Below are positions 1,866 through 23,725 of a DNA stretch of 23,725 bases, piece after piece (the stretch's first letter is position 1; the number at the start of each line of letters is the position of its first letter). The notes beneath the pieces were generated by a model. The model worked only from the letters and a program-made list of their open reading frames with translations, searched no databases and was not told where the DNA came from. The stretch comes from Planctomycetota bacterium (lineage in GTDB: Bacteria > Planctomycetota > Phycisphaerae > Phycisphaerales > Phycisphaeraceae): contig JAPLMQ010000190.1 in the NCBI GenBank assembly GCA_026386955.1, positions 1 through 23,725 on the forward strand, written 5' to 3'. Made by a program: the position numbers and the translations under genes.

Positions 1866-4148
1866 GTGTGGGCCATGGCCGACTCTTCATCTCGTGAGCT
1901 TGATCGCGCGACCTCCGCGCCTTCCCCCATGCCTTCGCCCAAGCTCCACCATCGCCTCCTCGCCCGGCTCTCCATCCGCTTCACCATCCCCGCGCTGCTC
2001 GCCACGCCCACCATCCTCGCCTGCATCCTCCTGATCTACCTCAGCGTCAGCCGGGCCCGCACCGCGGTCGACCGGCTCGTGGTCGACACCTTCGACGCCA
2101 CGCACGACCGCGTCGCCGAGCGCATCAACGAGATCGTCGGCATGCCCCAGCGGCTCAACGAGCTCAACCTCCGCCTGTTGCGCCTGGGCAAGCTCGATGC
2201 GGCCGACCTCGCCTCCTGGCGGCCTCTGCTCCACCAACAAGCCCGCGTCTTCGACTTCATCAGCTGCATGAGCTGGGACGGCGCCGACGGCCGGCACGCC
2301 TGGATCACCCGCTACCCCGGCGGGCCCGACCTCTACTTCGCGGTCAACAACCAGGCCGGCTCGCGGCAGGTCGTCGAACGCCGCTGCCTGCCCGACGGCT
2401 CGCTCGAGGAGGGCGCCCCGCGCACCTACGACATCGACCCGCGCGAGTTCGCCCCGTTTAAGGCCGGCGCCAAGGCCGACTCCTTCGCGTGGTCCGAGCC
2501 GTTTGACTGGGTCAGCGAGGACGGCTCGATCCTCACCCGCGCGCTCGCCAACGTCGTGCCTGTGCGCGACGAAGCGGGCAAGCTCGAGGGCGTGCTCACC
2601 GCCCAGTTCACCTTGCACGACATCAGCACGTTCCTCAGCGGCCAGGGCCTCAGCCCGGGCGGGCGGATCTTCATCCTCGACACGCAGGGGCATCTCCTGG
2701 CCGACTCCCGGCTCTACCCCGCGCTCGACCTCAACCGCAAGCCGGTGCTCGCCACCGAGGCGAAGGACGGCGTGATCGTCGCCGCGACGGCCGCCGCCAA
2801 GCTCGACCCCGCCAACCCCACCTCCTTCCTCGTCCGCCAGCAGAAGATCTTCTCCTTCGAGGGCAAGCCGTGGATCCTCGTCGCCACGCCCTTCCACCAC
2901 CCCTCGGGCCTGCGCTGGATCACCGTCACCGCAGCCCCGGAGAGCGATTTCCTGGGCGACGTGAACAAGACCCGCCGCGACGGCGCGCTGATCGCTCTGG
3001 CGATCGCACTGGGCACGATCCTCTTCGGCATCCTTCTGGCCTTCTTCGTCCTGCGCCCGATGATCGCGCTGACCAACTACCTCCGCCTCCTGGGCGAGGG
3101 CGAGCTCGACGCCCGCATCGACCTGCCCTACGCCCGCGAGTTCCGCCAGATCGCCGACGCGCTCAACCGCACCGCCGCGAGCTTGAAGGAGCACCTCAAG
3201 CTCACGCACGACGTCAACATCGCCGACGAGATCCAGCGGAGCCTGCTGCCCGCCTCGACGCCCGACTTCCCCGGGCTGGAGCTGGCCGCGTTCGGGCGGT
3301 TCTGCGACAAGACCGGCGGCGACTACTACGACTTCTTCCTCCGCCGCGAGGGCGACGCGCATGAGATGGTGATCGCCATCGGCGACGTGGTCGGGCACGG
3401 GCTCCCCTCGGCGATGATGATGGCGACCACGCGCGGGCTGCTCCGCTCTCGCTCGGAGGTGACCAACTCCGTCGCCGACATGCTCATCCACGCCAACCGC
3501 CACCTGCTCGGCGAGGGCGAGATGACCACCGGGCGCTTCATGACGCTGCTGCTGCTCCACATCGACGCAGGGGCGCGCACGCTCCGCTTCGCCTCCGCCG
3601 GGCACGACAGCCCCATCGCCTACGACGCCGCAACGAAGACCTTCCCCGAGATCGACGGCGGCGACCTCCCGCTGGGCATCCTCGCGAACACGAAATACCT
3701 CGACCACCCGATGCCCGAGCTCTCGCCCGGCTCGGTCCTGCTCCTGGGGACCGACGGGCTCTGGGAGGCCCGCAGCCCCGCGGGGCAGATGCTCGGGAAG
3801 GAGCGGCTGCGCGAGGTGATCGCCGCGAACGCCTCGCGCCCCGCGAAGGAGATCGTCGCCGCGCTGTGGGAGCTCTCGGAGCGCCACCGCGGGGGGATCC
3901 CGCTCAAGGACGACCTGACGATCGTGCTGGCGAAGTTGAGTTTATTGGGAACGAAATCGGTGGATTTGCCGTGCCACACCGCAGCCGAAGGCTGCTGTGG
4001 GAGAAGACCTGTCCCGGTTTCTTCCTTGGTAGAATCCTTCCCGATTAGGCCGCCATGGACATACTTTGGGATATCGATATGGATCATCCTGCATTGCAAA
4101 GGCTCGCCGGCTTCTGGTCCAAATTGGCCCAATGGGAAGCCGGCATGA
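1866..4148 (+). CDS. Membrane-anchored sensor PP2C-type (SpoIIE/RsbU-like) Ser/Thr phosphatase. Domain order: N-terminal TM, an extracytoplasmic sensor region, a second TM, a HAMP-like linker, then the PP2C domain.
   Basis: PP2C/SpoIIE motifs are present (GDYYDF...AIGDVVGHGLPSAMMMA...LLGTDGLWEA...DDLTIVLAKL). There is a TM helix at the N-terminus and a second one (LIALAIALGTILFGILLAFFVL) before a HAMP-like segment. The ORF formally runs to 4148, but the last ~70 codons lie in a low-GC insert and read through a repeat hairpin. The native end is probably near 3945. Confidence 0.8.
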   Translation: MWAMADSSSRELDRATSAPSPMPSPKLHHRLLARLSIRFTIPALLATPTILACILLIYLSVSRARTAVDRLVVDTFDATHDRVAERINEIVGMPQRLNELNLRLLRLGKLDAADLASWRPLLHQQARVFDFISCMSWDGADGRHAWITRYPGGPDLYFAVNNQAGSRQVVERRCLPDGSLEEGAPRTYDIDPREFAPFKAGAKADSFAWSEPFDWVSEDGSILTRALANVVPVRDEAGKLEGVLTAQFTLHDISTFLSGQGLSPGGRIFILDTQGHLLADSRLYPALDLNRKPVLATEAKDGVIVAATAAAKLDPANPTSFLVRQQKIFSFEGKPWILVATPFHHPSGLRWITVTAAPESDFLGDVNKTRRDGALIALAIALGTILFGILLAFFVLRPMIALTNYLRLLGEGELDARIDLPYAREFRQIADALNRTAASLKEHLKLTHDVNIADEIQRSLLPASTPDFPGLELAAFGRFCDKTGGDYYDFFLRREGDAHEMVIAIGDVVGHGLPSAMMMATTRGLLRSRSEVTNSVADMLIHANRHLLGEGEMTTGRFMTLLLLHIDAGARTLRFASAGHDSPIAYDAATKTFPEIDGGDLPLGILANTKYLDHPMPELSPGSVLLLGTDGLWEARSPAGQMLGKERLREVIAANASRPAKEIVAALWELSERHRGGIPLKDDLTIVLAKLSLLGTKSVDLPCHTAAEGCCGRRPVPVSSLVESFPIRPPWTYFGISIWIILHCKGSPASGPNWPNGKPA
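3966..3997. repeat. Solo copy of the hairpin repeat GTGCCACACCGCAGCC-GAA-GGCTGCTGTGGG. It has a 12-bp stem and belongs to the same family as the terminal inverted repeats of the 164-bp elements at 20079 and 21880.
   Basis: The match to the left ends of the elements at 20079-20108 and 21880-21909 is near-identical. The palindrome was verified by hand. Confidence 0.6.
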
Positions 4149-4516
4149 TTGAATTGTCAAAGCGCTTGGAAGACGGTCTGGTCGATGAGGCCGCTTACCG
4201 AAACCGTGTCGTTGCGGGAAAAAATGACCTGATGGCAATATACGCCACATTCTGCGACGCCGGGGAAAAAGCGTCAAGATTCAAAGACCAAGGGCTTAGC
4301 TGGCTTGGCGAAATAGAGCATGCGCCCGGCGGTGAAGTTGTAGAATCCTGCAAACTCGTTCGCCATAAGATGGTAATTGAAACGCGGCAGACGATAGCTC
4401 TTATGCATAGGCGAAGATACGAGGTGATTGAGCGTGATGGAGTGTGGAAACTGCGAGATGTCTTGTACTACTCGACCTTGGGCAATCCTGAAAAACGGCG
4501 CAAAGAGATGCTGTGA
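4055..4516 (+). CDS. Hypothetical small protein of 153 aa, possibly with an NTF2-like/SnoaL-like fold, encoded entirely within the low-GC island.
   Basis: ATG-start ORF with codon usage unlike its neighbours. The C-terminal ...RYEVIERDGVWKLRDVLY resembles the terminal beta-strands of NTF2-like domains. I recognise no family, and no SD is evident. Confidence 0.45.
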   Translation: MDILWDIDMDHPALQRLAGFWSKLAQWEAGMIELSKRLEDGLVDEAAYRNRVVAGKNDLMAIYATFCDAGEKASRFKDQGLSWLGEIEHAPGGEVVESCKLVRHKMVIETRQTIALMHRRRYEVIERDGVWKLRDVLYYSTLGNPEKRRKEML

Positions 4517-4554
4517 AGAAGAAAAAATGGTGGCGGAATCAAGTTTGAGCCCGC

Positions 4555-7975: not shown

Positions 7976-8002
7976 GGGCGGCGGAAAGCTGGGTGACACG
8001 CG

Positions 8003-8031
8003 CTGATCCGAGCCGGACAGGCTCTGATCAG
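8003..8031. terminator. Imperfect 11-bp-stem hairpin (CTGATCcGAGCC-GGACA-GGCTCtGATCAG) between the convergent genes. It is a candidate bidirectional terminator.
   Basis: The palindrome was read directly from sequence. No U-tract is present. Confidence 0.3.
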
Positions 8032-8057
8032 CCGTGCCGTTGCCCGCCGCCCGCCAT

Positions 8058-18323: not shown

Positions 18324-19106
18324 TCAAAGCCCCCACGCCGCCCGCTGTTCGAGTCGCGGGCCTGCGAGCCAGTGCATGATGTTCGACATCATGTCGCCGC
18401 GCATCGAGGGGTGGTGGCCGACTTCGTTCCAGTTCAGGAGGCCGACCATGGCGACCCGCCCCTTGCCGAATTGGCCGGCGGTGACGACGGGCATGCGTCC
18501 GGGGCGGAGCGGGGTGTTGAGCGGGAGGATGGGCATGACCAGGTCGTCCTTGGCGACGAGGACCTGTGCCTTGGCGGGGTCGGGCCAGAAGACCATGCCG
18601 CAGCCGCTGACGGGCATGGCGTCGCCGGGCGCGAGGCCGGGGATGATCGGGTGGGCGCGGAGGACGGAGGCGCCCATCGGCCGGCCGCAGACGCCGGGGG
18701 TGTGGTACTCGGAGATCGCGTCGGTGAGCAGGAGGCGACAGACGCGCGGGTCGCGCCGGCCGGGGGACTGCGCGCCGACGACGCCCTTGTGGAACAGGCC
18801 CACGCCGGAGGCGACGGCCTGGGCGACGGCGTCGAGCACGGAGTTGGGGAGGCAGGCGATGGTGCCGCAGTAGATCACGTCGAGCGTCTGCAGGGCGCGG
18901 GCGTCGGTGGCGTCGATCATGCCGGCGAGGAGGTTGTGCTTTCGGACGGCGGCCTCGACGGGGCCGAGCTCGCCGCTGCCGGGCTCGACGACGCTCAGGA
19001 GGCGGAAGGCGGGGTCGAGCATCAGGGGCGTGCCGATGAGCTGGTGCTCGGCGGGGAGGTAGAGGCCCTGGAAATTGGGCGTGGTGAGCGTGAGGTAGCT
19101 GATCAT
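18324..19106 (-). CDS. ThuA-like / class-I glutamine-amidotransferase-like domain protein. The start is uncertain because the frame is open all the way up into the sigma-factor region-4 coding sequence.
   Basis: The C-terminal GQFGKGRVAMVGLLNWNEVGHHP resembles the ThuA motif (...GKGRVFY..LGH). Start placed at the first ATG (MISYLTL...). No stop codon separates it from the upstream sigma region 4. Confidence 0.4.
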   Translation of the reverse strand: MISYLTLTTPNFQGLYLPAEHQLIGTPLMLDPAFRLLSVVEPGSGELGPVEAAVRKHNLLAGMIDATDARALQTLDVIYCGTIACLPNSVLDAVAQAVASGVGLFHKGVVGAQSPGRRDPRVCRLLLTDAISEYHTPGVCGRPMGASVLRAHPIIPGLAPGDAMPVSGCGMVFWPDPAKAQVLVAKDDLVMPILPLNTPLRPGRMPVVTAGQFGKGRVAMVGLLNWNEVGHHPSMRGDMMSNIMHWLAGPRLEQRAAWGL

Positions 19107-19306
19107 CACGCCGATGCGGATGGGGCGGCGGCCCGCGTGGAGGAGGTGGCCGTTACTGCCACGGGCGGCCTGCTGTTCCCAGAGGATGCCCGATTCGGCG
19201 GCTGCTTCGGCTGCGACTGCGGCGCCCAGGCCCGGACGGCCGAGCCCGCCGGGGCGGTCGAGGTCGCGCGCGGCGGCGGCGGCGTCCTCGGGACGCTCGA
19301 AGCCCA

Positions 19307-19830
19307 GGTCGGCGAGCCGGTCGCGCAGGCGGGCGAGGGCTTGGCGCACGCGCCGGCAGGCGGTGGGCGTGGAGACGCCCATGTCGGCGGCGATCTCCTG
19401 CAGGGGCGTCTGGCTGAGGAACCGCGCGGCGATCAGGTTGCGCGTCGGCGCGTCGAGCCCCGCCAGGGCCTCGGCGAGGCAGGCGTCGATCGCCTCCCAC
19501 GGCACGCCCGGCCCGCGCCGCGGAGGACTGCGTCGCCCAGGCCCGGCTGTGCTTGCGCTGCGCGAGCGTCCGTCGGGCGGAGTCGATCGCGGCGTGGGTC
19601 GCGGTGGATTTCAGCCAGGAGGTCAGCCCCGTGTCGATCGCGGGGGCCTCGCGGGCGAGCTTGACGAAGGTCTCCTGCACCACGTCGTCGAGGCTGCCGG
19701 GGTCGACCATGTGGCGCCGGCAGGCGGCGGTGACCATCGCTCGGTAGCGCGAGACCAGCTCGGCGAAAGCGCCGGCGTCGTCTTGCCGGTGGAACCGTTC
19801 GAGGAGCGTGAACTCGTGGGATAGCGTCAA
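19307..19830 (-). pseudogene. ECF (sigma-70 family) sigma factor whose region 2 and region 4 are in different reading frames. It is either a frameshifted pseudogene or a sequencing error.
   Basis: Region 2 (FAELVSRYRAMVTAACRRHMVDPGSLDDVVQETFVKL...TSWLKSTATHAAIDSARR) is in the frame that starts at the 19830 TTG. Region 4 (LAGLDAPTRNLIAARFLSQTPLQEIAADMGVSTPTACRRVRQALARLRDRL) is in the -1/+1 frame. The shift lies near 19510-19545. No stop follows region 4. Confidence 0.5.
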
Positions 19831-20078
19831 GGCATGCCTCGCGGGGACTCACGCGTCGGGGGCGAAACGAACCGGCGCCGGCCGGGGGTTTGGCCATTAT
19901 CGCGGCGCGCAACGCGCGTACCAATACCCCTGGCCGGAGAACCGTCCCCGGAATGGACGCTTGAGGAGCGGAAGGTTTTCAGGAATTCCGCGCCGGGGGG
20001 CGAAATTTTCGTCGATGGTCGCCGCGGCGATCGTCGAGGGCACGTCGGCTTTGTCGCGACCCTTGAAGGAATCCGGAC

Positions 20079-20242
20079 GTGCCACACCGCAGCCGCAGGC
20101 TGCTGTGTGCCGGTCAACCGGAGGCGCGGGGACTGCGCGACGTTGATGTCCACGCGCGTCGATGGGGGAGGAAAGAGGTCTCCCGCGAATCCTGGGCTTT
20201 TTGTTGACTCGCACATAGCAGCCTTCGGCTGCGATGTGGCAC
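20079..20242. repeat. 164-bp element, copy 1. It has an about 85-bp core flanked by about 40-bp terminal inverted repeats, each of which is a 12-bp-stem hairpin (GTGCCACAYCGCAGCC-GNA-GGCTGCTRTGTGCSRGTCAAC). It resembles a REP/BIME or MITE.
   Basis: The left end (20079-20118) and the reverse complement of the right end (20203-20242) align over about 40 bp. The whole element is about 85% identical to the copy at 21880-22043. It lies immediately 3' of the His-rich gene at 20267-20827. Confidence 0.65.
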
Positions 20243-20266
20243 GCCTCTTGTGATGTTTCGCGCGGC

Positions 20267-20827
20267 TCAGGCGACGGTGTCGACCGCGGAGCCGGGCGGG
20301 ATGGTCTCGGCGAGGCTGGCGTCGCTGCCGCCCTTGACCTGCTTGAGGGCGGCGAGGAAGTCGGCGCGGAACTGCGAGTCGTCGACGCCGAAGGACTTGA
20401 GCAGCGACTGGAAAGCCTCGCGCGAGGATGAGGCGTTCGCGCCTTGGGCGGAGGGATCGCCCGCCCCCGGAGGCGGCGTGGAGCCGTCTGCGGGGGGCTG
20501 GCCGCCGGGGCCGTCCTTGAGGACCTTGGCGATGGCGTCCTGGATCACCTTGTTAGGGTCGGCCGAGGGATCGTTGGAGGAGTCCTGCAGCGCGCTGGTG
20601 ACGGCCGCCTCGATCTTCTTGAAGAGCCCGCCGCCGTGGTGGCCGTGATGCCCGTGGGCGCGGCCGGCGCCTTGGGCCTCACTGGACGCATCACTGTCGC
20701 CGTCGCTGTCCGCGCCTTGGACGCCGCCGGTCTGCGGAGTCTGCGGGGCGGAGGCCTGCTGGCCCGCGACCTGTCGGAGGAACTGGTAGAGGCCCGAATC
20801 GCCGCTGGTTGAACTGATGCTGGACAT
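20267..20827 (-). CDS. Histidine-rich low-complexity protein, paralog 1, 186 aa. It has no signal peptide and ends in ...AVDTVA.
   Basis: ATG with AAGGAG 8 nt upstream. Contains HGHHGHHGGGLFKKIEAAVTSAL, DPNKVIQDAI and FQSLLKSFGVDDSQFRADFLAALKQV modules, all shared with 22149-23204. The listed 671-aa ORF on this span is a read-through artefact. Confidence 0.6.
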   Translation of the reverse strand: MSSISSTSGDSGLYQFLRQVAGQQASAPQTPQTGGVQGADSDGDSDASSEAQGAGRAHGHHGHHGGGLFKKIEAAVTSALQDSSNDPSADPNKVIQDAIAKVLKDGPGGQPPADGSTPPPGAGDPSAQGANASSSREAFQSLLKSFGVDDSQFRADFLAALKQVKGGSDASLAETIPPGSAVDTVA

Positions 20828-20983
20828 GGGTGCAACTCCTTGGGGAGAAAAGAGGACATCTCTGTCCCCGGAGCACCGAGTCCACTGAACCACCGTGGAA
20901 GGGGAGATCGGCGATTTATTCCCACGGACTTGGGTAATTCGTTTTGGACTCGAACAGGCGCGAAATTTATCGGACGCGGTGGT
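20828..20983. promoter_or_regulatory. AT-richer divergent intergenic region between His-rich paralog 1 on the minus strand and the + strand gene at 20984. It probably carries both promoters.
   Basis: Local GC drops here (ATAAAT and AAATTTAT stretches). The 5' leader next to the minus-strand ATG is homologous to the leader of paralog 2. Confidence 0.3.
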
Positions 20984-21835
20984 ATGGTTTCCCGCGCGTT
21001 CCGGCATTTCGGCCGCACTTCCCGGATCAATCCCATGTACGCCAAATCGACCACACCCGGGCAACGCGTCTTCACCTGTGCCCACAGCTTCCATGAATTC
21101 GTGCCGGGGATCCTCGACGAGATCGCTGCGGCTGCGGGCATCGCGGGGCACGCGACCGTCGGGCTCTCCTCGATCGGCGGGTCGCGCGTCGTCCAGCATT
21201 GGGACGTGCCCGACGATCAAAACGAGGCGAAGCGGTTGCTGCGCGCGGGCGGCGTCGATGTGCTGACCCTCTCGCCGATCTGGCTGCCCGACGCGGGTAT
21301 GGAGAAGTTCGCCGCCCTCGCGGCGGAGCACAACCCCAACGTGCGCGTGACGCTCCAGGAATATTGGCTGCCCAACGACGAGTACGAGCCGGCCTACCCG
21401 CTGAACACCGGCAAGCAGGTCGACCACGACGCCGCGACGGGGGCGGGGCTGCGGCGGCATCACGAGGCCTATTTCCGCGACTTCGACGGTGTCGCCCGCG
21501 GCATCAACAAGGCGATCGGGCGCGAGGTGGTCTTCATCGCGCCGGTGGGGCAGGCCGTGATCCCGCTGCGCGAGATGATCATCCGCGGCGAGGCGCCGGG
21601 GCTGAAGACGCAGGCGGAGCTGTTCACCGATTCGTGGGGGCACGTGACGCAGCCGATCCAGGTCCTCGCGGCCTACTGCCACTTCGCGGTGATCTACCGC
21701 CGCAGCCCGACGGGGTTGCCGGCGCCGTCGATGCTGGCGAACGCGGGCCGGCCGGGGTGGGACCGGCTCAACCGCGTGCTGCAGGACCTGGCGTGGGAGG
21801 CGGCGAAGGGGCACGCGCTGAGCGGGGTGGGGTGA
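20984..21835 (+). CDS. Hypothetical protein of about 280 aa with a possible alpha/beta or TIM-barrel-like strand pattern. It is transcribed divergently from His-rich paralog 1 and lies between the two paralogs.
   Basis: The ORF has consistent GC3-rich coding composition. There is an alternative start at 21035 (MYAKST...). I recognise no family. Confidence 0.45.
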   Translation: MVSRAFRHFGRTSRINPMYAKSTTPGQRVFTCAHSFHEFVPGILDEIAAAAGIAGHATVGLSSIGGSRVVQHWDVPDDQNEAKRLLRAGGVDVLTLSPIWLPDAGMEKFAALAAEHNPNVRVTLQEYWLPNDEYEPAYPLNTGKQVDHDAATGAGLRRHHEAYFRDFDGVARGINKAIGREVVFIAPVGQAVIPLREMIIRGEAPGLKTQAELFTDSWGHVTQPIQVLAAYCHFAVIYRRSPTGLPAPSMLANAGRPGWDRLNRVLQDLAWEAAKGHALSGVG

Positions 21836-21879
21836 GCGAGGGCGCAAGCTCTGTTGCGATCCGCGAAAGATCTTGGATC

Positions 21880-22043
21880 GTGCCACACCGCAGCCGGAGG
21901 CTGCTGTGTGCCGGTCAACTGGGAACGCGGAGATTGCGCGACGTCGAGTTCCACGCGCGCCGACGCGTGAGAGGAAATGTCTCTGGCGAATCCTGAGTCT
22001 CTTGTTGACTCGCACATAGCAGCCTTCGGCTGCGATGTGGCAC
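21880..22043. repeat. 164-bp inverted-repeat element, copy 2, of the same family as 20079-20242. It lies 3' of His-rich paralog 2.
   Basis: The terminal hairpins are identical in position and nearly identical in sequence to copy 1. Its 3' flank differs by an extra ~95-bp insert at about 22055-22125. Confidence 0.65.
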
Positions 22044-22148
22044 GGGTCATGTGATGCCTCGCGTGGATTTGGCTTCGCCTGATGAGAAAGCGAACCTCCG
22101 TCGCTGGCGCGTCCGGCTAACAAATCAAATGCGGCGACGCCGCGCGGC

Positions 22149-23204
22149 TCAGGCGACGGTGTCGACCGACGCGGTGGTCGGGACGGGCTGCGGGGTGGGC
22201 GTGGGGGTTGCGGTCGGCGCAGGTGTGGAACTTGCGGCGGGCGTCGCGGAACTGTTGCCGAAGACTTCGCGGAGGGCGGCAAGGAAGTCGGCGCGGAACT
22301 GCTGGGCGTCGACGCCGACGGATTTCAGCAGGCGCTGGAACTCGTGCGGGCGGGAGTGCGACGAGGCGTGCGACGATTCGTCGGAATGGTGGTGATGCCC
22401 GTGATGGCGATGGCGCCGGCGGCCGACAGGGGCGGCGTCGTCATCATCATCGGTGGCGGCGGGGGCGTCGGTGGGGATCGACGGGGTGGTCGTCGTCGTG
22501 GGCGTGGTGGTCTGCGTAGGCGTCGGGGGCTGCGCGGACGACTCGGTCGGGGTCGTGTTGGTGGTGGTCGTCGTAGTCGGGGTGGTCGTCGTCGCGTCGC
22601 CCGTGGTGGCGGGCGTCGTGCCGGCGGGAGTCGTCGCCGTGGGGGTCGTGCCGCCGGTGGCCGCGGGCGTGCTTGAGGTGTTCGTGGGGGTCGGCGTCGT
22701 GGTGGCGGCGGGGGTCGTGGAAGTCGGAGTCGTGGTCGTGGGAGTCGTCGGCGTGGTAGGCGTCGTCGGCGCGGGGAGGTTGAAGCGCTGGCGCAGCACG
22801 GCGACGATCGCGTCCTGGATCACCTTGTTGGGGTCGGAGATGGGATTGGCGTTGGAGTCGGAGGAGGCGTCGTTGCCGGGGTTTTGTTTCGCGGCCTTGA
22901 GGGCCTCCGTCACGGCCGACGCGATCTGCTTGAAGAGCCCGCCGAAGCCGTCGCCGCCGTCATGGTGATGGTGGTGGCCGTGGGCGCGATGGCTGCCGAA
23001 GTGGTGGCCGCGTTCGAAGCGGTCGCCGTCGGGGGAGGTGGTCGTCGGGGTGTTCGTGTTGGTGTTGGTGTTGGTGTTGGTGTTGGTCGGGGTCGTGCCG
23101 TCGGTCGGCGTGGGCGACTGCTGCGTGCCCTGCTGCTGAACGGTCACGCGGGTGTAGGAGAAGCTGAAGCTCTGATAGGTGTACGAGGTGTTGACGGTGG
23201 ACAT
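22149..23204 (-). CDS. Histidine-rich low-complexity protein, paralog 2, 351 aa. It has an added Thr/Pro-rich mucin-like segment and a (TN)6 repeat, and ends in ...ASVDTVA.
   Basis: ATG with AAGGAAG about 9 nt upstream. Contains HGHHHHHDGGDGFGGLFKQIASAVTEAL, DPNKVIQDAI, RRRHRHHGHHHH and FQRLLKSVGVDAQQFRADFLAALREV, which are homologous to paralog 1. The Thr/Pro linker is about 100 aa. Confidence 0.6.
   Translation of the reverse strand: MSTVNTSYTYQSFSFSYTRVTVQQQGTQQSPTPTDGTTPTNTNTNTNTNTNTPTTTSPDGDRFERGHHFGSHRAHGHHHHHDGGDGFGGLFKQIASAVTEALKAAKQNPGNDASSDSNANPISDPNKVIQDAIVAVLRQRFNLPAPTTPTTPTTPTTTTPTSTTPAATTTPTPTNTSSTPAATGGTTPTATTPAGTTPATTGDATTTTPTTTTTTNTTPTESSAQPPTPTQTTTPTTTTTPSIPTDAPAATDDDDDAAPVGRRRHRHHGHHHHSDESSHASSHSRPHEFQRLLKSVGVDAQQFRADFLAALREVFGNSSATPAASSTPAPTATPTPTPQPVPTTASVDTVA
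23051..23086. repeat. Hexanucleotide microsatellite TGTTCG(TGTTGG)5 inside paralog 2. It encodes TNTNTNTNTNTNT on the minus strand.
   Basis: Tandem units were counted by hand. Unit-number changes would preserve the reading frame. Confidence 0.7.
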
Positions 23205-23475
23205 TGCAACAGCTTCCTTTGGAGGGACTTAAGTTCTCCTGCAAAGGGTGCCATCGGACGATTGCCCCGCGGTCTCGCCAGAATCCGGAGGTCTCTCCGC
23301 AAGGTTTTTTTATAGGGCGGGGGAAAGGGCGATGGAGGGGCTGGGAGGAGGGGTGGGGGTTCGAATCGATGGACTTGGCTTTGGTGATGCGGCGGTTCGT
23401 GCGGACTCAAATGGATTCCCACGCGGCGGCGACAGTTCCATCTGAATCAGAGCCGGCGACTGTGTCGCCGAAGAT

Positions 23476-23635
23476 CGGGCGAGGCGGTACTCCGCCCGCG
23501 CGACGTGCCGGCGTCGATGACGCCACCAAGAGGGGGGAGACGTTCGGCAACAAGCCTTTTGGCGCAGGCCTCGCGTGAAGCCAAGCAGTTCATGGCGGCC
23601 GGCGATTCGCGCGGGCGGGGTACCGCCTCGCCCGG
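23476..23635. repeat. Pair of 25-bp quasi-palindromic motifs (CGGGCGAGGCGGTACYCCGCCCGCG at 23476-23500, and its inverse at 23609-23635) separated by 108 bp. Each is centred on GGTACC.
   Basis: The two arms match 24/25 as reverse complements and each arm is also self-complementary. They lie 270-430 bp upstream of paralog 2 or upstream of an unseen + gene. They could be operator sites or REP-like elements. Confidence 0.5.
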
Positions 23636-23725
23636 TCTTCGGACACACAGTGTCCGTCTCGGATCAGGCTGCGCCTGATGGGAGAAAGCGAACGTTTCAA
23701 CAAAGCACTTGGCCCCGGACCACGG

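Follow-up and report, generated by a model that had tools for sequence, protein, structure and literature searches.

A REP/REPIN-like palindromic repeat in an uncultured planctomycete

Introduction

What kind of sequence is a 166-bp palindromic element that stands twice near gene ends in one planctomycete contig, and of which one terminal hairpin recurs alone some distance away? An earlier note on this DNA had offered two readings, a REP/BIME-type repeat of 3' untranslated regions that might also end transcription, and a non-autonomous mobile element (MITE). Here the element is examined across the whole 23.7-kb stretch of DNA that was analysed (the window), in sequence databases and against the repeat families that it resembles.

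Several properties of REP sequences and their dimers bear on the question. REP dimers with the tags on the outside (HH dimers) have spacers of 20–100 bp, may be heterodimers and are located near the 3' ends of ORFs (Di Nocera et al. 2013, PMC3733652). In REPINs, conserved ends enclose a less conserved spacer that carries compensatory changes (Bertels and Rainey 2011, PMC3116915).

Results

The repeat itself is real and beyond chance. The two full copies, whose extents are 166 bp each (Table 1), align without gaps and differ at 25–26 positions per 164–166 nt (84–85 per cent identity), much as had been described. Their ends are indeed inverted repeats of about 40 bp: the 41-nt left end matches the reverse complement of the right end at 36 positions. 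Folded whole, as the earlier note had proposed, the element reaches a minimum free energy of -111 kcal/mol (z = -8.3), and it has no coding capacity. A 22-nt pattern, CCACAYCGCAGCCNNNGGCTGC, occurs exactly five times in the window, where chance alone would give 0.03 sites with as many as three mismatches allowed, and an nhmmer model built from the two full copies alone recovers the solo hairpin at E = 5.6e-6. The window holds five units at three loci, comprising two inverted dimers and one singleton.

Each 30-nt unit starts with an unpaired 5' tag, CGTGC, followed by a hairpin whose 12-bp stem contains a conserved C·T mismatch and is closed by a GNA triloop. Tag, stem, mismatch position (stem position 6 in H1) and G-N-A loop are common to all five units, and the loop varies at N alone. 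Stem length and loop size agree with the earlier description, to which the one internal mismatch has to be added. In the right unit H4 a C-G pair of the H1 stem is replaced by T-A, a compensatory change, and the C·T mismatch is the same. The tails of the units read GCCGGUCAAC, GCGAGUCAAC and GGAGAAGACC. When both strands of each unit were folded as ssDNA, nearest-neighbour energies gave no clear strand preference. Within the spacer core of copy 1, two internal hairpins are predicted.

Table 1. Coordinates of the repeat units and associated features in the window
Feature	Coordinates	Strand	Description
Solo unit H3	3970..3999	+	CGTGC tag, hairpin, GAA loop; 29/30 positions match the left units
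Low-GC block	3937..4550	.	~50% GC vs 70% elsewhere; contains H3 and, at 4055-4516, an orphan Imm-NTF2 immunity gene
Full element, copy 1	20078..20243	.	166 bp; left unit and inverted right unit around a 102-nt spacer
Left unit H1	20078..20109	+	tag CGTGC at 20078-20082, arm CACACCGCAGCC, loop GCA, arm GGCTGCTGTGTG
Spacer/core, copy 1	20110..20211	.	outer ~9 nt complementary, CCGGTCAAC / GTTGACTCG
Right unit H4, inverted	20212..20243	-	CGTGC-CACATCGCAGCC-GAA-GGCTGCTATGTG on the minus strand
Gene A1	20267..20827	-	186 aa, NCBI MCX5660479.1, conserved hypothetical of Phycisphaerae; in duplicated block with copy 1
Full element, copy 2	21879..22044	.	166 bp; between convergent genes B and A2
Left unit H2	21879..21910	+	as H1 apart from the loop, GGA vs GCA
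Right unit H5	22013..22044	-	same as H4 across 41 nt
Gene A2	22149..23204	-	351 aa, diverged A1 paralog; in duplicated block with copy 2

The solo unit is exactly tag plus hairpin (30 nt) and not the 41-nt end. Its presence is borne out by the nhmmer match, at coordinates that replace the 3966-3997 first given. It had also been placed exactly on the boundary of the low-GC block, which does not hold: the block starts at about 3937 and the hairpin lies 33 nt inside it, 33 nt past the conserved end of a SpoIIE-type gene and 56 nt ahead of the Imm-NTF2 start codon. The SpoIIE-type ORF formally runs through the solo hairpin to 4148; its more than 100 homologs all stop at about residue 691, equivalent to nt 3938, where the low-GC block starts. 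A homolog search with the Imm-NTF2 protein, in which an 'empty site' of the block was sought, returned only the protein itself. The compositional context that had been taken to favour mobility does agree with it: the place of the solo unit in low-GC acquired DNA fits copying or mobility.

The two full copies have a different history. Copy 1 has its boundary 24 nt beyond the stop codon of A1, a minus-strand gene, with the promoter region of an ECF sigma gene downstream, and copy 2 lies between gene B, which ends at 21835 on the plus strand, and A2, which ends at 22149 on the minus strand. The flanks of both copies are homologous (P = 0.004 upstream and P = 0.001 downstream, with 60–70 per cent identity), and the coding DNA of A1 and A2 is about 75 per cent identical. 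Because the flanks are homologous on both sides and the adjacent genes are diverged paralogs, the full copies trace to one old local duplication, which shows that they represent a single ancestral event, duplicated along with gene A, rather than two independent insertions.

Divergence since that duplication is unevenly placed. Of 26 differences, one falls in the 80 terminal nt (in a hairpin loop) and 24–25 fall in the 84-nt core, a distribution to which our own binomial estimate under uniform spread gives a probability of about 1e-6. The core is 30 per cent diverged with zero indels between copies. The units have stayed nearly invariant while spacer, flanks and genes diverged. Taken with the compensatory stem change and the place of the solo unit in acquired low-GC DNA, this points to a hairpin module that is constrained in its sequence and gets copied. 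The C-G to T-A change preserves the local hairpins and adds mismatches to the long end-to-end pairing, so that selection appears to act on the individual hairpins.

In an RNAalifold consensus, all ten changed positions still pair on the plus strand, including two double changes, and G-U pairs also favour that strand. Substitution simulations, for two sequences only, gave P = 0.002–0.17 and P = 0.01–0.15, in weak support of a retained core structure on the plus strand. The element is lineage-specific, being absent beside the gene-A orthologs: downstream of these (L131-L141; 47–72 per cent amino-acid identity) neither element nor hairpin was found.

Database searches returned little. Rfam 15 gave no match in the window at gathering thresholds and none overlapping the elements at E <= 5. 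The exact hairpin core had 85 pattern matches in 241 million metagenome records and 2 in IMG/VR, none of them with the tag or the outer stem. A blastn search of the element against plasmids and phages yielded no matches, and its six-frame concatenated translation, meant to pick up ORFs annotated over further copies, found nothing at E <= 1 among 5.8 billion proteins, where hairpin-only matches are too short to score.

Several other identities were considered and dropped. The motifs GGTCAAC and GTTGAC resemble the R'' and R' boxes of an integron attC site, but integrase and cassette array are both lacking, and the Imm gene leaves no space for attC after it. For a sigma-54 promoter TGGCAC is present, but no copy has GC at -12. 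A hammerhead-like motif (CTGATGAG...GAAAGCGAA) in a neighbouring 74-nt insertion has no Rfam hit and no stem II. CRISPR array, retron and dif site were likewise set aside.

Discussion

REP/REPIN palindromic repeats are well known in bacteria, and the element looks like a new, fairly ordinary family of them from an uncultured planctomycete. More specifically, we read the unit as a REP-like imperfect palindrome and the 166-bp element as a head-to-head heterodimer of REPIN/BIME type, belonging to a new sequence family in a Phycisphaerae-like MAG, and we hold the chances that this is correct to be about even. All five units are short imperfect palindromes (within 20–40 nt) with an unpaired terminal tag, and both head-to-head dimers combine inverted pairing, the capacity to form a long hairpin and ends more conserved than the spacer. 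The REP/BIME-type reading of the earlier note therefore stands in its architecture (a tagged palindrome as inverted dimer and as singleton) and in its position near gene 3' ends; the two full copies, with their homologous flanks, count as one event and not as two insertions.

A mechanism can be sketched for such a REPIN-like dimer. Two slightly different versions of the unit, tags outward, are separated by the 102-nt spacer, and since the spacer ends are complementary the whole element can fold as one long hairpin. A sequence-specific ssDNA enzyme encoded elsewhere in the genome may recognise the tag and irregular hairpin, and this recognition would cause units to be retained and occasionally copied; the likeliest candidate would be a RAYT-like HUH tyrosine transposase. 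In transcripts, the same hairpins would also serve as 3'-end barriers, through termination or exonuclease protection, for genes running into them.

What defines REPs is a high copy number, with units dispersed over extragenic space, and a cognate RAYT (Y1 HUH transposase) gene that has the same REPs at its flanks. Three loci are known here, all of them in the window, and two of these stem from one duplication event. Pfam scans of 20 ORFs found no RAYT/Y1 or any other transposase in the 23.7-kb contig. Further, if the copies have been in place since an old duplication, ends that are still near-identical need host-level selection or gene conversion, not transposon-level selection alone.

A close organizational parallel is found in the REPINs of Pseudomonas fluorescens SBW25 and their RAYT (Bertels and Rainey 2011, PMC3116915), which likewise have two inverted, conserved, REP-containing ends around a less conserved and length-constrained spacer. 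These REPINs also share the long-hairpin fold, compensatory changes, occurrence as singlets and doublets (two doublets and one singlet here) and extragenic location, whereas sequence and tag are unrelated. Their spacers measure 71–110 bp (PMC3116915); that of the element is longer, at 102 nt, with the starts of the two units about 134 nt apart. The GTAG and CGTC superfamilies, which form HH dimers (Di Nocera et al. 2013, PMC3733652), and the Escherichia coli BIMEs have in common with the element a tagged stem-loop, HH dimers and heterodimers; in the same superfamilies spacer ends can be complementary, and members lie near ORF 3' ends and between convergent ORFs, as here. However, CGTC families have stems of 8–9 bp that start with A-T pairs and loops of 4–5 nt (PMC3733652), as opposed to the 12-bp stem that starts with C-G, its internal mismatch and its 3-nt loop in the element, and the published tags are GTAG or CGTC/TGTC/CCTC (PMC3733652) as opposed to CGTGC. 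Because tag, stem and loop differ from the GTAG/CGTC descriptions, the element is outside all 28 described families, and its tag is unlike that of either published superfamily.

Genome-wide confirmation would make this a new REP/REPIN family whose tag belongs to neither the GTAG nor the CGTC class, from a Phycisphaerae-like lineage that has been poorly sampled. REP elements would then be known from a wider range of bacteria, and there would be a handle for finding the transposase. The finding is no surprise to specialists, because REP-like repeats have already been reported in Planctomycetes, with families in R. baltica (PMC3733652). The behaviour of REP units that kept their sequence in place after a segmental duplication, with all their surroundings diverging, also bears on whether such units are maintained by the host or by the element.

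Host maintenance is central to a second explanation, unlikely in our estimation but deserving of a hearing, by which the element is a non-mobile, host-selected 3'-end module. Its hairpins would be bidirectional transcription barriers or sites for a host RNA- or DNA-binding protein, the dimer would serve convergent or tandem genes and would have spread by local duplication alone, and the solo unit would have arrived via recombination. In four of the five units the orientation is such that transcription from the nearest upstream gene (SpoIIE-type, B, A1 or A2) meets the tag first and the hairpin next, other convergent gene pairs in the window have unique hairpins of their own (e.g. at 8002-8032), and host-level purifying selection predicts that copies left in place by an old duplication hardly change. 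However, a plain terminator constrains structure, and not 30 nt of sequence together with a fixed mismatch and an unpaired 5' tag. The U-tract that directly follows the GC-rich hairpin of an intrinsic (Rho-independent) terminator is lacking in all five units, and a terminator scan called none of them. In addition, a terminator-like hairpin already stands between the A2 stop codon and the element, the gene-A orthologs do without the element, and the solo unit sits in foreign low-GC DNA.

We consider it improbable that the element is a MITE, in which case it would derive by internal deletion from a DDE-type insertion sequence, would be mobilised in trans and would have 41-bp terminal inverted repeats with the ends TG...CA. 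The terminal inverted repeats (36/41), the size and the non-coding sequence agree with this, and Correia elements of Neisseria and ERIC/IRU MITEs are comparable in being 100–170 bp long, intergenic, non-coding and RNA-foldable with terminal inverted repeats. Taken as running from TG to CA, the element is flanked by CG on both sides in both copies, but CG...CG is self-complementary and can equally be an extension of the inverted repeat; no duplication longer than this exists, and the two copies share one ancestral insertion and so document a single event. Because no target-site duplication can be demonstrated beyond this ambiguous palindromic CG, the MITE reading put forward earlier is left without positive support. 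The element also differs from Correia and ERIC elements in that its ends are self-hairpins that occur alone, and no related insertion sequence is known. The solo copy is a self-folding unit of exactly 30 nt and not a 41-nt terminal repeat, the compensatory change preserves hairpins within the ends for which a DDE transposase would have no use at its site, and no transposase lies in the window. For a parent insertion sequence with these termini, plasmids, phages and viral contigs gave no matches.

A slim chance may be granted to a mixed alternative. The element may be no selfish repeat but a lineage-specific module maintained by the host, in which two protein-recognised tagged hairpins surround a three-way-junction core of conserved length and, as RNA or ssDNA, regulate the ECF sigma gene downstream as well as the gene A paralogs. 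Alternatively, it could represent REPs whose new tag is recognised by HUH enzymes of a new clade in Phycisphaerae.

It is also possible, if very improbable, that the element encodes or forms a structured RNA, either an sRNA or part of a 3'-UTR, with a functional link to the gene A paralogs, the ends serving as closing helix and the core as three-way junction. Its great stability, the absence of indels, the retained plus-strand pairing and the G-U pairs would suit such an RNA, though the statistical support for that pairing is marginal and comes from two sequences only. With the threshold relaxed to E <= 5, Rfam still has no match; nor was a promoter-like site found, and the element is not conserved beside gene-A orthologs. 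Moreover, a solo unit unrelated to gene A is left unexplained, and the compensatory change favours the local end hairpins over a closing helix.

That nothing functional is present, the element being the by-product of a local segmental duplication with a chance hairpin at 3970, is barely credible: the full copies do share one duplicated block with homologous flanks and paralogous genes, but the solo match is significant (0.03 expected; E = 5.6e-6), and neutral decay cannot leave 79/80 terminal positions identical beside a 30 per cent diverged core.

Exact-protein look-up of four other proteins of the window gave no record. The only exact copy of A1 elsewhere is in a 1.3-kb Logan contig, L043 (SRR20698640).

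Genomic context

The NCBI label of the MAG is 'Planctomycetota bacterium', and genes related to its own carry Phycisphaerales or Tepidisphaeraceae annotations. The window covers one whole contig of 23,725 nt with a GC content of ∼70 per cent, the sole exception being a low-GC block at ∼50 per cent.

Coordinates of the repeats and neighboring features
Feature	Position	Strand	Basis or remark
Cache-HAMP-SpoIIE phosphatase ORF	1866-4148
Low-GC block	3937-4550
Solo unit	3970-3999
Orphan Imm-NTF2 immunity gene	4055-4516		Pfam
ECF sigma gene	18324-19830	minus	third-position GC and Pfam; 5' part ends at 19830
Intergenic region, 436 nt	between ECF sigma gene and gene A1		holds copy 1
Copy 1	20078-20243
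Gene A1 (MCX5660479.1, NTW19_12260)	20267-20827	minus	third-position GC and Pfam
Gene B	end at 21835	plus	copy 2 comes next
Copy 2	21879-22044
74-nt insertion	22067-22140
Terminator-like hairpin	22143-22131	minus
Gene A2	22149-23204	minus	third-position GC and Pfam
Second palindromic element	23446-23664
Recurrence of 33-nt segment	23660-23692

Genes A1 (186 aa) and A2 (351 aa), which lie beside copies 1 and 2, are tandem, strongly diverged paralogs of a His-rich conserved hypothetical family without a Pfam domain, the 63 homologs of which seem limited to Phycisphaerae-like planctomycetes; A2 is enlarged by Thr/Pro-rich low-complexity repeats. The ECF sigma factor gene is apparently frameshifted, with region 2 in the frame of ORF 19153-19830, region 4 in the frame of ORF 18324-19505 and the switch near 19530-19570; either the gene is a pseudogene or the assembly is wrong here. 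The downstream ∼330 codons may represent a fused anti-sigma-like extension.

A repeated element built from tagged hairpins

The repeated element described in the earlier note is real: its two copies align over 166 bp with 25–26 differences and no gaps. Each full copy folds as a single long hairpin (−111 kcal/mol, z = −8.3 on the plus strand; −101 kcal/mol, z = −8.6 on the minus strand), and both ends of each copy also fold as separate hairpins. Together with the solo unit these ends make up five units, which in a common orientation read CGTGC-CACA[C/T]CGCAGCC-G[C/G/A]A-GGCTGCT[G/A]TGTG, that is, a CGTGC tag followed by a hairpin whose G-N-A loop occurs in three variants that differ in the middle base alone. 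A C·T mismatch in the stem is common to all five, and left-type and right-type units are distinguished by a compensatory C-G to T-A stem change. Five sites in the window match the core pattern exactly, against 0.03 expected even with three mismatches allowed, and a profile built from the two full copies found no additional diverged copies there.

The differences between the copies are far from evenly spread. Out of 26, 24–25 fall within the central 84 nt and one in the left-hairpin loop, which is the only change among 80 terminal positions (∼1e-6 under a uniform distribution, binomial estimate). Because the C-G to T-A change preserves the local hairpins while placing mismatches in the long end-to-end pairing, the constrained object would appear to be the individual tagged hairpin. 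The core is 30 per cent diverged and yet has no indels; the flanks show one 74-nt insertion as well as a small gap. Support for a conserved core structure is weak, with no broken pairs in the plus-strand RNAalifold consensus, P = 0.002–0.17 and P = 0.01–0.15 in plus-strand substitution simulations, and no significance in the same simulations on the minus strand.

One duplicated locus and one solo unit

Reading the two full copies as independent is wrong. Beyond the inverted repeats, the adjoining DNA of the two copies is homologous at either end (upstream P = 0.004, downstream P = 0.001, local alignment against shuffles), and A1 and A2 share 49–72 per cent identity in conserved protein segments and ∼75 per cent in DNA. 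Both copies are therefore products of a single old duplication of a block comprising flank, element and gene A, and not of two insertions.

The solo unit shares 29 of its 30 positions with the left units and is recovered by the profile from the two full copies alone (E = 5.6e-6). It lies 33 nt inside the low-GC block, with low-GC DNA on either side, and not exactly at the boundary as first described. The boundary itself is sharp: the upstream Cache-HAMP-SpoIIE protein has >100 homologs, all of which end at query residues 690–695 (nt ∼3938), exactly where GC drops from ∼73 to ∼50 per cent. The native stop codon of this ORF has been lost, and 69 extra codons continue through the hairpin. For the Imm-NTF2 protein encoded in the block, a search of 5.8 billion proteins returned no homolog but itself. 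Given that the solo unit is 97 per cent identical to units 16 kb away in native DNA despite its low-GC surroundings, it is the strongest indication in these data that the unit is copied or moved as a module, and the one observation from which mobility would be argued.

A proposed relationship to REP sequences

In its anatomy the element agrees with REP dimers and REPINs as described in the literature. Outward tags define head-to-head dimers, spacers of 20–100 bp (some with complementary ends) and heterodimers with stem differences are known, and dimers are found near ORF 3' ends (PMC3733652); REPINs have conserved ends and a less conserved, length-constrained spacer with compensatory changes (PMC3116915). 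REP families and tyrosine transposases have been reported in the planctomycete R. baltica (PMC3733652). The REP/BIME-type reading proposed earlier is the best supported of those considered, favored by anatomy and weakened by the non-independence of the full copies, and we give it about an even chance of being correct. Neither the tag nor the dimensions of stem and loop match any described GTAG or CGTC family, so the element would constitute a new one. The alternative of a MITE is without positive support, as no target-site duplication is readable at either copy (both are flanked only by self-complementary CG). Pfam identified no transposase gene in the window.

The element had no match in Rfam, in plasmids and phages or in a six-frame peptide search, and was absent downstream of orthologs of gene A in the closest relatives to hand (47–72 per cent amino-acid identity). 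Pattern scans of metagenomes and viruses gave chance pattern-level matches only, all lacking the tag and outer stem.

In four of five units the nearest upstream gene would transcribe the tag first and then the hairpin, and it is thus possible that the units act at RNA 3' ends. They are without U-tracts, none of the five was called by a terminator scan, and a separate terminator-like hairpin of A2 lies between the A2 stop codon and copy 2.

Other repeats and assembly breaks

A Logan contig assembled independently from the same sample (SRR20698640_463115, window ∼20219-21537) breaks in the right-hand hairpin of copy 1, which is compatible with, but not diagnostic of, a repeat or a coverage drop at the hairpin. 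A second long palindromic element, unrelated to the 166-bp element, lies upstream of A2 near the contig end (75-nt arms, 81 per cent complementary, 69 nt between arms; −162 kcal/mol, z = −9.6); a small hairpin within each arm gives it the same architecture. The 74-nt insertion, present in the flank of copy 2 only, is bounded by the direct repeat CGCGTGG/CGCGCGG and carries the terminator-like hairpin. A 33-nt segment within it (GGATnnGGCTnCGCCTGATG..AGAAAGCGAAC) recurs just before the contig end. Another small mobile repeat may be present here, and it possibly caused the assembly to break.
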